From: an uncultured Syntrophorhabdus sp.
GTDB taxonomy: Bacteria > Desulfobacterota > BSN033 > UBA1163
Direction of reading: 5' to 3'
DNA: 64,000 nucleotides
Assembly (NCBI GenBank): GCA_964477935.1
Contig: CAYZFX010000007.1
Location: forward strand, 21,553-85,552
In this document: piece after piece, positions 47,195 to 62,193 of the stretch
How positions within the stretch are numbered: the stretch's first letter is position 1
Layout: each line of letters opens with the position of its first letter
Made by a program: the position numbers and the translations under genes
Notes under the pieces: model-generated
Told to the model about the DNA's origin: nothing
What the model saw: only the letters and a program-made list of their open reading frames with translations
Databases searched by the model: none

Positions 47195-48646
47195 TTACAT
47201 CAACCCTGCGATCGATTTCTGTGCGAATGAGAGGACATTGGCAGGAAAGATCCCCATGTAGAACGTCCCGATCAAGGCTAAAATCAGGGCGATCACCGGA
47301 GCCGGTGAAAACTGGAGACCGCTAATCTCCCGCTCCGGTTCCCTGAAATACATGAGCACCGTGACCCGGAGGTAGTAGTAGACGGAGATGGCGCTGTTGA
47401 GCACTCCGAGAATGGCCAGCCAGTAATACTTGGCCTCCACGGCTGCACTGAAGATATAGAATTTGGCCATGAATCCGCCCAGGGGAGGAATCCCTGCCAG
47501 GGAGAGGAGAAAGACGGTCATCGAGGCGGACAGGAGGGGATACTTGAAACCCACCCCAGCATAATCGGTGATCAGGGTGTTCTCCTCACCTTTCTTGCCG
47601 AGGAGGATGACGCAGGTGAAGGCGCCCAGATTCATAAAGGCATACGCCATGAGATAGAAGAGGATGGAGGAGGTCCCCAGTTTATTCCCGGCGACAAAGG
47701 CTACGAGGATATATCCTGCATGGGCAATGCTCGAGTAGGCCAGCATCCTTTTGATGTTGTTCTGGGAGATGGCGATGATGTTCCCCACCGTCATCGTCAA
47801 TACCGCAATGAGCCACATGATCGCAGTCCAGTCCGGTTGAAATGATGGAAGGGCGGTGAAGAAGACTCGGATCAGGGCTGAAAACCCGGCAGATTTGACG
47901 CCGGTGGCCATGAAGGCGGTCACCGACGTCGGCGCCCCCTCATAGACATCGGGCGTCCACATATGAAAGGGGACAGAAGCAATCTTGAAGCCGAAACCGA
48001 TGGTAAGAAAAGCAAGACTCATGAGGAGCATCGGATGATCGAGAAGTTTTTTCTCGGCAATGTAAGAGGCGATATCCTTGAGGTAAAGGGAGCCGGTGGC
48101 GCCATAGAGAAAAGCAATCCCGTAGAGCAAAAACCCTGTGGCAAATGCCCCAAGGAGGAAGTATTTGAAGGCCGACTCCACCGACTTCCGATTCTCTCTC
48201 ATCATTCCAGCCAGGATGTAGATGGAGAGGGACATCGTCTCCAGGCCGAGGAAGATGACGATCAAATGGGTTCCTGCGGCCATCAACATCATCCCGAGCG
48301 TAGCGAAGAGCAGGAGGCTGTAATATTCGCCGAACCCGATCCCCTCCCTCGTCACATAGCCCATCGAGATCAGGATGGTCAGAAACGCGATCAGGAGGAT
48401 CATGATCTTGAAGAAGAGGGCAAATCCATCGGAGGTGAACATCCCTTCAAACCCCATCTCTCCGGATCCCACAAGGGGAAGGGAATAGAAAAAGGCGAGG
48501 ACTACGCCGATCAGGCTGAGGATTCCGAGATATCCCTTCTTCTCCCCTCTGGGTCCAAAGACATCTACCAGAAGGACCAGAAATCCAAAGGCCGCGATGA
48601 TGATTTCCGGCGCTATGAGGTCAAGATCAATCTCTGGTAATTTCAT
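47195..48646 (-). CDS. nuoN: NADH-quinone oxidoreductase subunit N
   Basis: 483 aa antiporter-like subunit; NuoN-type N-terminus and TM profile. Confidence 0.9.
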   Translation of the reverse strand: MKLPEIDLDLIAPEIIIAAFGFLVLLVDVFGPRGEKKGYLGILSLIGVVLAFFYSLPLVGSGEMGFEGMFTSDGFALFFKIMILLIAFLTILISMGYVTREGIGFGEYYSLLLFATLGMMLMAAGTHLIVIFLGLETMSLSIYILAGMMRENRKSVESAFKYFLLGAFATGFLLYGIAFLYGATGSLYLKDIASYIAEKKLLDHPMLLMSLAFLTIGFGFKIASVPFHMWTPDVYEGAPTSVTAFMATGVKSAGFSALIRVFFTALPSFQPDWTAIMWLIAVLTMTVGNIIAISQNNIKRMLAYSSIAHAGYILVAFVAGNKLGTSSILFYLMAYAFMNLGAFTCVILLGKKGEENTLITDYAGVGFKYPLLSASMTVFLLSLAGIPPLGGFMAKFYIFSAAVEAKYYWLAILGVLNSAISVYYYLRVTVLMYFREPEREISGLQFSPAPVIALILALIGTFYMGIFPANVLSFAQKSIAGLM

Positions 48647-48769
48647 GAACTAAATCCTCCAATGAAGGGGGTCAAGGTTTTCAGGGTTCTTGGGCTCAAG
48701 TTCGAATCTCTCAAATGATCTTACTTTTTCAATCCCCTCGGTCACTCGAATCCTTTGACCCCTTGAACC

Positions 48770-59454: not shown

Positions 59455-59520
59455 CGCAGCTCCTCCTCTTTCACCGGTTCGAAAGATTCATGCCTCTGTG
59501 AAGCCGACCGACGGTTTCGG

Positions 59521-62193
59521 TCAAGGATTGACCCGTTCGATTCGGACCGTGGAGTATTTTAAATCCGGGATCTTCGATTCTGGATCGAGCACGGTATTGG
59601 TCAGGCGATTGACCGGGGCCTCCGCAAAATGGAATTTGGCAAAGGCCACTCCCTTGGCCACCCTCTCCGTGATCTTCACCCTCGAGGTGAATTCCCCTCT
59701 CCGGCTCACCACTCTGACCTGATCCTCTTCCCTGATCCCGAGCCTTTCTGCATCTTGAGGATGGATCTCCACTAAACTCTCCGGGCACATCTCGTTAAGG
59801 AGTCTCACCTTCCGGGTCATACTTCCCGCGTGATAATGGTAATAATCCCTTCCCGTACTCAGAATGAATGGAAATTCCTGATCCGGGACTTCGGGGGGAG
59901 GACTATAGTCCACGGGCACGAATAATCCCTTCCCCCTTGCGATCTTGCCCCTATGGAGGATCGGCGTTCCCGGATGGCTCACATCCGGGCAGGGCCACTG
60001 AATCCCCTTGGACTCCAGGCGGGCATAGGTGATCCCTGCATACTGGGGGGTCACCTGGCGAATCTCTTCGAAGATGTCCTCAGGCCCTCGATAAGACATC
60101 GGATATCCGAACCGGGTGGAGATCTCCGAAATGATCTCCCAATCGGCCTTAGCCCCTTCCGGACCTTCGAGCGCCTTTCTCACCCGCTGAACCCTCCTCT
60201 CGGTGTTGACGAATGTCCCGTCCTTCTCGAGGAAGCTCAGGGTGGGAAAGACGACATGGGCCTGCTGGGCCGACTCCGTGAGAAAGAGGTCCTGAACCAC
60301 GAGGAGGTCCAATTTGGCATAAGCCTTCTGGAGATGGGATAGATCGGGGTCGGTCACCATGGGATTCTCCCCCATGATGTAAATCGCTTTAACCTCTCCC
60401 CTGTAGGCGGCCTCTCCAATCTCAACGACCGTAAGACCAGGTTTCTCTGAGAGGGATGTGTTCCAGAAATATTCAAACTTCTCCCTGTTCTCCCTGATCG
60501 CCACGGCCTGATACCCAGGATAGACATTCGGCAGACAACCCATGTCGCAGGCCCCCTGCACATTATTCTGCCCTCTCAAGGGGTTGACCCCGCTTCCGGG
60601 TTTTCCGAGCTGACCGCAGAGGAGGGCCAGATTGGAGATCGCCTTCACTCCGTCCGTACCCTTTGAGTGCTGGGTGATTCCCATGCAGTAGAGGATGGCC
60701 GCATTCTTTGCCGTGGCATACATCCGCGCTGCCTTGATGAGCTGGTCTTTCGGAATTCCGGTCAGCTCTTCCACATATTCAGGCGTGTATTGTGCAACCT
60801 TCTCCTTAAAGGCCTCGAACCCCTCTGTATGAGCTTCGATGAATCCCTTATTATAGAGATTCTCTTTGAGGATGATGTGTGCCAAACCGTTTAACCAGGC
60901 AATATCATCCCCGGGTTTGGGCTGGAGGAAGAGGTCGGCCTCCTCGGTGAGATCGATCCGTCTCGGATCGACAACGATGATCTTGGCCCCGTGGAATCGA
61001 GAGCGGTTCCTAAGGACCATTCCGATGACTGGATGGGTTTCGGTCGTATTGCTTCCGGTCACGAGAAAGAGATCTGCCTCTTTGAAATCGGCGATGGAGT
61101 TGGTCATCGCGCCGGAGCCTAAGGTCGTGGCCAGACCGACCACGGTGCTGGAGTGTCAGAGACGGGCACAGTGGTCCACATTGTTCGTCCCGATGGCAGC
61201 CCTGAGAAACTTCTGGAAGAGGTAGTTTTCTTCACAGGTGACCCGGGCAGAGGCGAGTCCGGCGATGCTGTTCGGGCCATAGGTCGCCTTGATCTCTCTC
61301 AGCCTCGTGGCTACGAACGTCAGGGCTTCCTCCCAGCTGGCTTCTCTCAACCGGCCATTTTCACGGATGAGTGGGGTTTTGAGCCTTTCAGGGCTGTGGA
61401 CGAATTCGAAGCCGAACCTCCCTTTGACACAGAGAACCCCGTGATTCGTGCCAAGCCCCTCACGGGTGGTTACCTTAATCACCCTGTTTTGGACCACGTT
61501 CACCTCGAGAGAACAGCCCACGCCGCAGTATCCACAGATCGTCGTCACCCTCTCCGCCTGCCATTTCCTTCCCTTGATTGGACTGACGTTCTCTGTCAGT
61601 GCGCCCACTGGGCAGGCGGCCAGACACTCCCCGCAGGAGATGCACCTTTCTGGCCGCACGGGCTCCACGCGGGCGTCGAAGCCAGTGCCGTGGAGATCGA
61701 GGACCTCCCGGCCGACGACCTCCCGGCAGGTTCGGATGCACCGGCTGCAGAGGATACAGCGGTTCGGGTGGTATCGGATGGCTGGAGTGGAATAGGTTCG
61801 GACTTCTTTCGCCGGCGCCTCCACCCGGTAGACCGTCTCGGTGATCCCATATTCGTAAACATAATCCTGGAGGTCACATTCCCCTCCCTTATCACAGACC
61901 GGACAATCAAGGGGGTGATTCACCAGCAGGAACTGAAGGACCTCTTTTCGGATCTCGCGGACCTTGTCGGTCTCTGTCTCCACGACCATCCCGTCCACAG
62001 CCACCGTGTTGCAGGCGGTCACAGGGTTTTTAAGTCCCTCGATCTCGACCACACACATCCTGCACATGCCAGTGGGTAGGAGACTCTCCATGTAGCAAAG
62101 CGTCGGGATACGGATACCATCCTTCTTGGCCATTTGAAGAATGGTCAGGCCCTCTTCTCCTTCGATGAGTCTGCCATTGATCGTGATCTTCAT
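59521..62193 (-). CDS. fdhA: Selenocysteine-containing molybdopterin formate dehydrogenase alpha subunit, NuoG-like N-terminus (FdsA/FdhA type); one gene spanning two track ORFs via an in-frame UGA at 61156-61158
   Basis: N-terminal 2Fe-2S, His-ligated HPLDCPVCDKGGEC and two ferredoxin-type 4Fe-4S motifs. Then the MopB domain, where NVDHCARL-[TGA]-HSSTVVGLATTLGSGAMTNS aligns with E. coli FdhF NVDCCARV-U-HGPSVAGL. Downstream MopB motifs include GVNPLRGQNNVQGACDMG. Confidence 0.8.
61120..61146 (-). promoter_or_regulatory. Candidate bacterial SECIS hairpin (7-bp stem CGUGGUC/GGCCACG, apical loop GGUCU) beginning 12 nt 3' of the UGA codon
   Basis: Seen in sequence in minus-strand sense. The position and G/U-containing apical loop are consistent with SelB-binding SECIS elements. 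Confidence 0.45.

Follow-up and report, generated by a model that had tools for sequence, protein, structure and literature searches.

Operon Organization

The subject of this analysis is a complex I operon in a 64-kb stretch of DNA from an uncultured Syntrophorhabdus sp. (contig CAYZFX010000007.1); we refer to the whole stretch as the window. Pfam and NCBIfam profile searches, used together with the list of open reading frames (ORFs), identify thirteen genes in one minus-strand block that runs from 62193 to 47195 in the order fdhA, nuoABCD, FUS, nuoHIJKLMN. The first encodes a selenocysteine (Sec)-containing formate dehydrogenase (FDH) alpha subunit, and FUS denotes the gene, and its product, for an iron-sulfur (FeS) flavoprotein in the nuoEFG slot. 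A terminator follows at 47149-47131. The ORFs, the domain profiles, and the hairpin with its T-run confirm the gene order and strand given in a preliminary description of this DNA. The features are as follows.

59521-62193, minus strand: fdhA, 890 aa; Sec-containing formate dehydrogenase alpha subunit with a Mo/W-bis(pyranopterin guanine dinucleotide) (bisPGD) site; TIGR01591
61156-61158, minus strand: in-frame TGA, the Sec codon for FdhA residue 346, in the motif HCARL-U-HSS
61127-61143, minus strand: hairpin GUGGUC-GGUCU-GGCCAC, resembling a selenocysteine insertion sequence (SECIS) and starting 13 nt 3' of the UGA
59098-59454, minus strand: nuoA, 118 aa; PF00507, 4e-37
about 58598-59107, minus strand: nuoB, 169 aa; NF005012, 242.8 bits
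58087-58578, minus strand: nuoC, about 162 aa; PF00329, 4.7e-47
56913-58085, minus strand (58115 is the start of the 400-aa ORF): nuoD, 390 aa from Met11; TIGR01962, 579 bits
54887-56839, minus strand: FUS, 650 aa, in the nuoEFG slot; iron-sulfur flavoprotein resembling SfrB and the beta subunit of NADP-dependent FDH (NADP-FDH)
53842-54861, minus strand: nuoH, 339 aa; PF00146, 1.1e-124
53397-53825, minus strand: nuoI, 142 aa; two CxxCxxCxxxCP motifs
52758-53285, minus strand: nuoJ, 175 aa; PF00499, 9.1e-40
52428-52745, minus strand: nuoK, 105 aa; PF00420, 1.2e-29
50359-52335, minus strand: nuoL, 658 aa; TIGR01974, 785.7 bits
48770-50314, minus strand: nuoM, 514 aa; TIGR01972, 637.5 bits
47195-48646, minus strand: nuoN, 483 aa; TIGR01770, 468.9 bits
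47131-47149, minus strand: intrinsic-terminator-like hairpin AGAGGGC-TGAAC-GCCCTTT followed by a T-run, TTTTTCTTT, 46 nt after nuoN

The spacers measure 66 nt between fdhA and nuoA, -10 nt between nuoA and nuoB, about 20 nt between nuoB and nuoC, 1 nt between nuoC and nuoD, 73 nt between nuoD and FUS, 25 nt between FUS and nuoH, and 16 nt between nuoH and nuoI. The fdhA-nuoA spacer contains a ribosome-binding site for nuoA, GAGGAGGAG, and inspection of this spacer found no terminator-like site. Judged from its sequence, the operon is a single compact transcription unit. The true start of nuoB overlaps nuoA by 10 nt, with boundaries that match the annotation in a close relative (L081, described below). 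The 242-aa ORF at 58598-59326 (minus strand) in the ORF list is an over-extended nuoB and marks no real gene boundary; the same holds for a 287-aa ORF at 52393-53256 (minus strand), which covers nuoJ/nuoK in another frame.

Formate Dehydrogenase Subunit

FdhA scores 870.7 bits against the TIGR01591 Fdh-alpha model (cutoff 666) and 431 bits against the NuoG model TIGR01973. Its Pfam domains are Fer2_4, NADH-G_4Fe-4S_3, and Fer4_Nqo3, then Molybdop_Fe4S4, Molybdopterin, and Molydop_binding. The NuoG-like domain spans residues 1-215 and contains a 2Fe-2S site, a His-ligated N5-type motif, HPLDCPVCDKGGEC (HxxxCxxCxxxxxC), and two further 4Fe-4S sites. All catalytic residues are intact, namely U346, H347, and R540, the last within NPLRGQNNVQG, so that FdhA has the makeup of a formate dehydrogenase alpha subunit of the Mo/W-bisPGD, FdhF/FdsA type. 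The nearest solved structures are FdsA of Rhodobacter capsulatus (6tg9_A, 775 bits) and also FdhF of the hydrogen-dependent CO2 reductase. No twin-arginine translocation (Tat) signal was found in FdhA, which argues for a cytoplasmic location like that of the peripheral arm of complex I.

The same in-frame TGA is present in 19 homologous FDH genes (orthologous or paralogous), and Cys occupies the Sec column at one locus (L059). Across 14 sequences, 98.8% of the cells in the hairpin that follows the UGA are paired, two pairs show compensatory changes, and none of 500 shuffles reaches the observed pairing. This comparative test was used in place of single-sequence folding of the SECIS region, which gave z=0.33. 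SECIS_3 is the sole Rfam match in 18 kb (61103-61161, 24 bits, E=0.19, below the gathering score); up to E=1, the operon yielded no match to a molybdenum cofactor riboswitch or to any further RNA element. The gene has the features of a bacterial selenoprotein gene, a UGA at a Sec/Cys column and a downstream hairpin, the Rfam match being sub-threshold, and we predict that the fdhA TGA is decoded as selenocysteine. The combination noted in the preliminary description, a NuoG-like N-terminus joined to a catalytic Sec/Mo site, is borne out by the model score, the three catalytic residues, and the conserved TGA with its hairpin.

The window carries this Sec codon, yet no selenium-machinery gene is visible within the 64 kb: selA, selB, and selC were not found there, nor were any tRNA or tmRNA genes. 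An AIRS-family ORF at 29245-30288 was considered as SelD and set aside, as it has no SelD-like N-terminus.

Flavoprotein in the nuoEFG Slot

Residues 62-145 of FUS match PF10589, the NuoF C-terminal domain that holds the N3 4Fe-4S cluster (C76, C79, C82, C122), residues 163-243 form a Fer4_20 domain, and residues 257-557 form an FAD/NAD(P)H module with GAGPSG at 262 and GGGNVA (GxGxxA) at 396. The C-terminal 4Fe-4S domain is all that FUS has of NuoF. An initial assignment of a NuoF-type SLBB/4Fe-4S module plus a GltD-type module thus stands for the 4Fe-4S and GltD parts and fails for the SLBB domain, which is undetectable even at E<=10. No NCBIfam model reaches its cutoff on FUS. PDB matches to the flavin part are NfnA (9n5u_A, 391 bits), 8oh5_C (333 bits), which we take to be StnC of the Sporomusa Stn transhydrogenase, and NfnB (4ylf_B, 313 bits; 5jca_L, 304 bits), as well as 9bov_A, a molybdopterin-oxidoreductase chain. 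The N-terminal part aligns with its counterpart domain in HydB, HoxF, and NuoF.

FUS was first described as a NuoF-C/GltD fusion, but the combination is not special to this locus. By its domains, FUS has the usual architecture of the SfrB/NADP-FDH beta-subunit family and is no novel fusion; the arrangement is standard in a large family, full-length homologues with 45-55% identity adjoin FdhA genes outside any nuo context, and the Joint Genome Institute (JGI) names FUS homologues "formate dehydrogenase (NADP+) beta subunit". The motifs GxGxxG and GxGxxA and the Fer4_20 domain with CLRC are those of an NADP(H)-type GltD/NfnB flavoprotein. The GxGxxA motif has been tied to NADP(H) in the Stn paper (PMC7483475), and with the GxGxxA and YRR motifs the nucleotide site of FUS is most likely NADPH-specific, which narrows the NAD(P)H-linked flavin module proposed earlier.

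The C-terminal tail of FUS, FDEVEKGFSIPVARREAERCLRC (window 54887-54970, residues about 618-643), weakly matches Fer4_20 model positions 1-28, while residues 163-243 match positions 29-112 of the same model; the C-terminal CLRC corresponds to C639/C642. This suggests a circular permutation in which the tail completes a cluster site.

Among metagenome matches to FUS, the best 120 are all at least 73% identical. The nuo-embedded examples all come from metagenome-assembled genomes (MAGs), and the family is found only in uncultured lineages.

Complex I Core

The eleven core subunits NuoA, B, C, D, H, I, J, K, L, M, and N are encoded together, with matches above cutoffs for the subunits scanned. 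NuoD is of the quinone-site type and carries the QHPATHG and DRLDY motifs with the quinone-site His and Tyr. In NuoB, the four Cys ligands of cluster N2 are in place (CC...GACACSGG...GCPP), and the two CxxCxxCxxxCP motifs of NuoI correspond to clusters N6a and N6b. These motifs are those of a Q-module of the quinone-reductase type. The search of NuoD for NiFe ligands found no CxxC or RxCGxC motif, and the NiFeSe_Hases match of 20.5 bits lies below its cutoff; with NuoD devoid of these Cys motifs, the operon does not encode a formate hydrogenlyase or group 4 NiFe hydrogenase.

The operon is also distinct from other known forms of the enzyme. As the preliminary description had stated, the operon has no nuoE, nuoF, or nuoG; NuoE, NuoF, and NuoG domains are likewise absent from the 43 other ORFs scanned across the window, and on this evidence the system is not a canonical 14-subunit complex I. 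The Fpo models score far below the Nuo models (FpoD, 373 bits against a cutoff of 600; FpoL, 474 bits against a cutoff of 1050), and NCBIfam finds no FpoF in the operon, which sets it apart from Fpo (F420H2 dehydrogenase). Searches of the operon gave neither PF01512 nor a NuoE-type domain, both of which a module of the Nuo-Bfu, FdsABG, or HydABC type would have.

Conservation of the Arrangement

A locus scan with one genome per species yielded 80 loci, onto which the 13 window proteins were mapped; three more (L081-L083) were added by exact protein look-up. Among the 36 loci with FUS identity of at least 56% (L001-L035, L056), FUS lies between nuoD and nuoH at every locus with flanks, and likewise in L081-L083. 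The nuo-embedded FUS proteins form one clade, with stand-alone FUS-FdhA pairs outside it. These loci fall into three arrangements. Variant A, fdhA-nuoABCD-FUS-nuoH..N, is found in the window, L081, L001, L005-L009, L021, and L035, so that the gene order of the window recurs in nine other independent MAGs; the synteny check called for at the outset thus comes out in favor of a conserved arrangement. One of these, L081 (GCA_026415035.1), is an 85% relative with the same flanking genes as the window. In the window, every gene of the operon is intact, and identity to the orthologues of at least nine other MAGs from different environments is 75-91%, which points to purifying selection.

Variant B, nuoABCD-FUS-X-nuoH..N (L011-L029, L082/83), has an additional gene in the slot. 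Its product, X, resembles FdhA/NuoG over its full length of about 873 aa and retains every FeS and molybdopterin-type domain, with Ser-Ser/Gly in place of Sec-His and Leu-Thr in place of Arg-Gly at the catalytic positions. The basal lineages L030-L034 (labeled Syntrophorhabdales or Syntrophus MAGs) have the same order as variant B with a more degenerate X. Because Sec/Cys, His, and Arg are lost, X should be unable to oxidize formate and, as we read its sequence, can only be an electron-transfer or scaffold subunit, an FDH-shaped electron wire as NuoG is.

A neighbor-joining tree of 11 concatenated proteins (3476 columns, 200 bootstraps) supports variant A at 94.5%, variant B at 85%, and the two together at 100%, with the basal lineages outside; in a three-protein tree, variant A received a bootstrap of only 46%. 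By the 11-protein tree, variant A is a single derived clade that has lost X from the slot. In all ten variant-A loci that have an upstream flank, the window included, nuoA is preceded by a full-length catalytic Sec-FdhA. In variant B, the FDH genes in front of nuoA are short, align only to residues about 216-890, and do not have the NuoG-like domain. The most economical interpretation is that a NuoG-like partner is always required by FUS and that, in variant A, this partner would be FdhA.

The N-terminal domain of the window FdhA is 51-54% identical to every X N-terminal domain, while the C-terminal domains fall as low as 25-28% identity; comparison of the same N-terminal domain with other soluble FdhA/SfrA-like proteins gives 41-44%.

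The short Sec-FdhA of variant B belongs to a same-strand cluster directly upstream of the nuo operon (L082:1-6936, L011:491-6969, L012:410-7008). The products of this cluster are an HdrA/GltD-like flavoprotein of very large size (1410 aa in L082), FlpD (MvhD-like), an FeS protein, and the short Sec-FdhA, to which L012 adds HdrB/C-like CCG and Fer4 proteins. The cluster constitutes a second, independent FDH-nuo neighborhood. We considered the short Sec-FdhA as a complex I subunit and did not adopt this assignment; given its place in the HdrA/FlpD/FeS cluster, it more likely belongs to a soluble complex with those proteins.

Outside the nuo context, L039-L060 (Syntrophomonadaceae and other Bacillota MAGs) pair a stand-alone, full-length FUS homologue (45-51% identity) with an FdhA-like protein that has no Sec/Cys, His, or Arg, an SfrAB-like, non-catalytic state. 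The proposition that Syntrophus aciditrophicus has the operon was rejected for the type strain, L033/L034 being MAGs so labeled; Agne et al. describe strain SB of this species as having no membrane nuo genes (PMC8805022).

Proposed Input Module

These observations lead us to propose that FdhA and FUS replace NuoEFG on the 11-subunit core, a reading that we consider somewhat more likely than not and in which docking to the core is postulated. The argument is the complementary distribution of X and full-length FdhA. The idea that the two proteins form a substitute NuoEFG, with FdhA standing in for NuoG, had been put forward in the preliminary description, and the comparative pattern now favors it. 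There is precedent for this kind of argument: genes for the Nuo-Bfu module in mid-cluster have been read as a NuoEFG replacement (Schut et al., PMC9304861), as have other input modules, namely FpoF and the epsilonproteobacterial type (PMC3144371). By analogy with NuoF/HydB, whose N3 domain contacts NuoG-like subunits, homology also supports a partnership between FUS and FdhA.

The operon product would then be a 13-subunit complex I variant with 11 core subunits and two cytoplasmic input proteins. NuoA-D and NuoH-N would make up an ordinary quinone-reducing, proton-pumping machine. FdhA would take the role of NuoG, docked on NuoI/NuoCD, with its N-terminal FeS chain passing electrons to NuoI (N6a/N6b), NuoB (N2), and menaquinone; unlike NuoG, it would retain a Sec-Mo/W-bisPGD site for formate/CO2. 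FUS would take the role of NuoF, its N3-type 4Fe-4S domain resting on the N-terminal domain of FdhA and its GltD/NfnB-type FAD module with two 4Fe-4S clusters serving NADP(H) in place of the FMN/NADH site. Electrons from formate would travel from Mo/W-bisPGD through FS0 into the FeS chain and those from NADPH through FAD and two 4Fe-4S clusters to the N3-type cluster; the two routes would converge on the N4/N5-type clusters and continue through N6a/b and N2 to menaquinone with proton pumping. Three redox couples, formate/CO2, NADPH/NADP+, and menaquinone/menaquinol, would in this way be joined, the quinone step being coupled to proton translocation.

In the forward mode, such an enzyme would be a proton-pumping menaquinone reductase fed by formate and NADPH. 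With potentials of about -430 mV for formate and -74 mV for menaquinone, the transfer of an electron pair would yield roughly 69 kJ, enough for full proton pumping. In the reverse mode, the proton-motive force would drive menaquinol oxidation and the reduction of CO2 to formate or of NADP+ to NADPH. A syntrophic fatty-acid oxidizer needs menaquinol-driven reduction of CO2 or NADP+, and at the low formate concentrations typical of syntrophy the proton-motive force could drive electron flow from menaquinol to CO2. Both the lineage names given to the relatives and the presence of beta-oxidation genes in the window make the reverse mode an attractive conjecture. Taken to its full extent, this would be a reversible link between menaquinone and CO2/formate, coupled to the proton-motive force and with NADP(H) as a third port, that runs backwards in uncultured Syntrophales-like bacteria: menaquinol from acyl-CoA oxidation would be reoxidized by complex I at the cost of the proton gradient, and the electrons would reduce CO2 to formate for a partner organism. 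We offer this extended scheme tentatively and think it rather less likely to be right than wrong by a good measure.

Several points weigh against an attached FdhA-FUS head. The attachment of both proteins to NuoB/C/D/I is something we infer from sequence comparison. The pair is homologous to the two-subunit soluble NADP-FDH of Moorella and could work on its own, and stand-alone FUS and FdhA pairs occur at L043, L051/L052 (Desulfacinum), and L059. The N-terminal domain of the L043 protein is 52.6% identical to that of the window FdhA, as high as the nuo-embedded ones, and N-terminal conservation is accordingly not specific to docking. The fdhA-nuoA spacers in relatives extend up to about 250-280 nt, which leaves room for a separate promoter. 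The absence of NuoEFG applies to the window, and a second nuo operon may exist elsewhere in the genome. The direction of operation, finally, is a conjecture from lineage and the neighboring beta-oxidation genes.

Alternative Explanations

The most serious competitor holds that FdhA and FUS constitute a soluble Moorella-type FdhAB (formate + NADP+ <-> CO2 + NADPH), co-transcribed with a headless complex I that is fed by ferredoxin or another carrier, merely because both are needed in the same growth mode. The JGI name for FUS homologues fits this view, as do the stand-alone FUS-FdhA(Sec) pairs of Desulfacinum infernum and MAGs listed above, the description of the Moorella enzyme as SfrB2 plus SfrA2/FdhF3 (PMC13040438), and the frequency of 11-subunit complexes with unknown or ferredoxin donors (PMC11238625; PMC3144371). 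It leaves unexplained, however, the fixed position of FUS between nuoD and nuoH throughout a deep, monophyletic clade, the fact that in most of this clade FUS has a non-catalytic NuoG-like partner unable to serve as an FDH, and the loss of X exactly where full-length FdhA appears. In the window, moreover, the FDH subunit genes are split by nuoABCD, whereas in stand-alone pairs they are adjacent in the order FUS-FdhA. An interleaved soluble NADP-type FDH had already been raised as an alternative in the preliminary description; the synteny and clade data weaken it, although the stand-alone pairs keep it alive, and we regard it as a credible but clearly less likely account.

Much less likely still is a bifurcating or confurcating three-port enzyme on Nuo, in which the FUS FAD would split the electron pair of NADPH and send one electron downhill through Nuo to menaquinone and the other uphill through the FeS chain to the FDH site, for CO2 reduction, or to ferredoxin; operating backwards, the enzyme would confurcate. 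The potentials of the three partners, about -430, -320/-370, and -74 mV, have a spacing that would suit bifurcation. Homology links the flavin module of FUS to NfnB, in which bifurcation takes place at the FAD (4ylf_B and 5jca_L), and to the NADPH-binding domain of bifurcating StnABC/NfnABC (8oh5_C, 9bov_A, 9n5u_A); confurcation has also been proposed for Nuo-Bfu by Schut et al. (PMC9304861). However, the GltD, DPD, and SfrB relatives, which have the same module as FUS, are not bifurcating, and the sister lineages with a dead FDH site have two ports only. In Stn-type enzymes, the GltD-like domain is the NADPH entry site and is not known to be the bifurcating center.

That the locus is decaying or misread, with the fdhA TGA a true stop between two fragments and the nuo operon a relic with foreign insertions, has in its favor that the ORF list splits fdhA into 345-aa and 540-aa ORFs, but we give it almost no credence, as the TGA falls on the catalytic Sec position, where L059 has Cys, and precedes a covarying SECIS hairpin, and as the intact operon genes, with the cross-MAG identities given above, bear the mark of purifying selection.

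A Possible Selenocysteine in NuoB of Relatives

In 15 relatives from both variants, an in-frame TGA takes the place of the first Cys of the NuoB tandem Cys-Cys (FGLA-U-C-ALEM), at the following positions.

L001:3590, L005:7736, L006:6203, L007:6177, L008:7790, L009:7787, L014:7873, L016:2759: NuoB TGA
L017:1864, L019:7809, L021:7743, L023:7846, L024:3680, L082:7767, L083:3782: NuoB TGA

The window (within 58598-59107), L081, and others have TGC/TGT at this site and thus Cys-Cys. Gene callers split nuoB at the TGA in the relatives. A hairpin about 20 nt downstream of the TGA is 91% paired, with two compensatory pairs. Where close orthologues have Cys in some cases and TGA in others at the same column, this typically marks selenocysteine. 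The tandem cysteines are ligands of cluster N2, and the pattern suggests a selenocysteine ligand of N2 in the TGA-carrying NuoB proteins. The literature search found no report of a Sec-containing NuoB.

Surroundings of the Operon

The genes flanking the operon are housekeeping genes for an FKBP isomerase, a pyrophosphatase, an S1-domain protein, and ftsEX. Divergent from fdhA lies a gene for an Old-Yellow-Enzyme (OYE)-type FMN oxidoreductase (62478-63584, plus strand), which is also next to fdhA in the 85% relative L081 and is absent at other variant-A loci such as L005. A beta-oxidation cluster at 12756-18281 encodes a long acyl-CoA dehydrogenase (593 aa), a thiolase, and an 801-aa 3-hydroxyacyl-CoA dehydrogenase/enoyl-CoA hydratase, close to which lies a TetR regulator gene. 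A crotonase gene stands apart at 43464-44252. These genes would fit a fatty-acid-oxidizing lifestyle. A glyoxylate/glycerate-type module at 36000-39200 (minus strand) has genes for an aldehyde dehydrogenase, a 2-hydroxy-3-oxopropionate (tartronate semialdehyde) reductase, and a hydroxypyruvate isomerase in tandem.

Implications

The question of which protein supplies electrons to the 11-subunit "headless" complex I, a widespread enzyme, dates from 2011 at the latest (PMC3144371) and was raised again in 2024 (PMC11238625). The operon described here appears to name a donor, a conserved two-protein head composed of an NADPH flavoprotein and a NuoG-like protein, and in the lineage of the window the NuoG-like protein is a selenocysteine formate dehydrogenase with an intact predicted site. 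If the head is attached, this would be the first complex I predicted to accept electrons from formate and NADPH, and subsurface and syntrophic anaerobes would have in it a simple means of coupling the production or consumption of formate to energy conservation. It would also display next to each other the two states, "active FDH" and "dead FDH = NuoG", that have been postulated to explain how the N-module arose. Should the enzyme run backwards, it would offer a new cytoplasmic answer to the reverse-electron-transport problem of syntrophy and a living analogue of the step that turned an FDH-like protein into NuoG. The FUS family is abundant in metagenomes and known from uncultured lineages only, which makes a concrete, testable target useful.

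Comparison with Known Systems

The forms of complex I that have been classified are the 14-subunit enzyme, the 12-subunit enzyme (with FpoF, or with NuoG and unknown proteins), and the 11-subunit enzyme (PMC3144371), the donor of the last still being described as unknown (PMC11238625). In the literature searched, in which coverage of subscription papers was incomplete, we came upon no account of nuoABCD-[SfrB-like]-nuoH..N, whether FdhA was part of it or not.

Canonical complex I (Nqo1-14 of Thermus thermophilus, Nuo of E. coli) shares with the window the same 11 core subunits, the quinone-site, N2, and N6a/b motifs, the three antiporter-like subunits, and the gene order with an input module between nuoD and nuoH. 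FdhA has the N-terminal cluster domains of NuoG, and FUS has the N3 cluster domain of NuoF. In contrast to the canonical enzyme, the window lacks NuoE, the FMN/NADH-binding part of NuoF, and NuoG; its NuoG-like subunit keeps an active-type Sec-Mo/W site and is encoded before nuoA, and its flavin site is a GltD/NfnB-type FAD-NADPH module.

The same pair of proteins is found in the NADP-FDH FdhAB of Moorella thermoacetica (EC 1.17.1.10), which combines an alpha subunit that contains Sec and has a NuoG-like N-terminus with an SfrB-like beta subunit made up of a NuoF-type 4Fe-4S domain and a GltD-type module. Judged by domains, names, and published composition, FdhA and FUS have the domain architecture of NADP-FDH alpha and beta subunits. 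The pair of Desulfacinum infernum DSM 9756 (L051) is 47% (FUS) and 52% (FdhA) identical to that of the window. Enzymes of the Moorella/Desulfacinum type are soluble and encoded by adjacent genes, whereas in the window the beta gene sits in the nuoEFG slot, the alpha gene heads the operon, and the beta subunit belongs to a clade known only inside nuo operons. SfrAB of Geobacter sulfurreducens and StnC/NfnA show the same module pairing, with a GltD-like protein and a non-catalytic NuoG/FDH-like one, and the in-slot X of the sister lineages resembles this non-catalytic state. SfrAB and Stn/Nfn are soluble NADPH-linked oxidoreductases or transhydrogenases, however, and Stn/Nfn need NuoE/NuoF-like subunits that are absent here.

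In formate hydrogenlyase and Fdh-Mrp-Mbh, an FDH feeds NuoI/NuoB/NuoD homologues of an ion-translocating complex via FeS subunits, as we propose for the window. In those systems, the acceptor is H+ at a NiFe site and the FDH docks through HycB; the window NuoD, by comparison, has quinone-site residues and no NiFe ligands, and the FDH carries its own NuoG-like domain. An exchangeable input on an 11-subunit core is familiar from Fpo (FpoF, F420H2) and the epsilonproteobacterial Nuo (NuoG with two unrelated proteins, flavodoxin), and the same principle is seen in cyanobacterial NDH-1 (ferredoxin) and Geobacter Nuo-Bfu (BfuABC in the slot), with several of these modules in the same operon place. 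None of the four has an SfrB-type NADPH flavoprotein or an active formate dehydrogenase as the NuoG equivalent. We favor the view, on sequence grounds, that the system is a complex I with an exchangeable input module, which is a known principle, and that its head of FdhA and FUS is newly proposed here.

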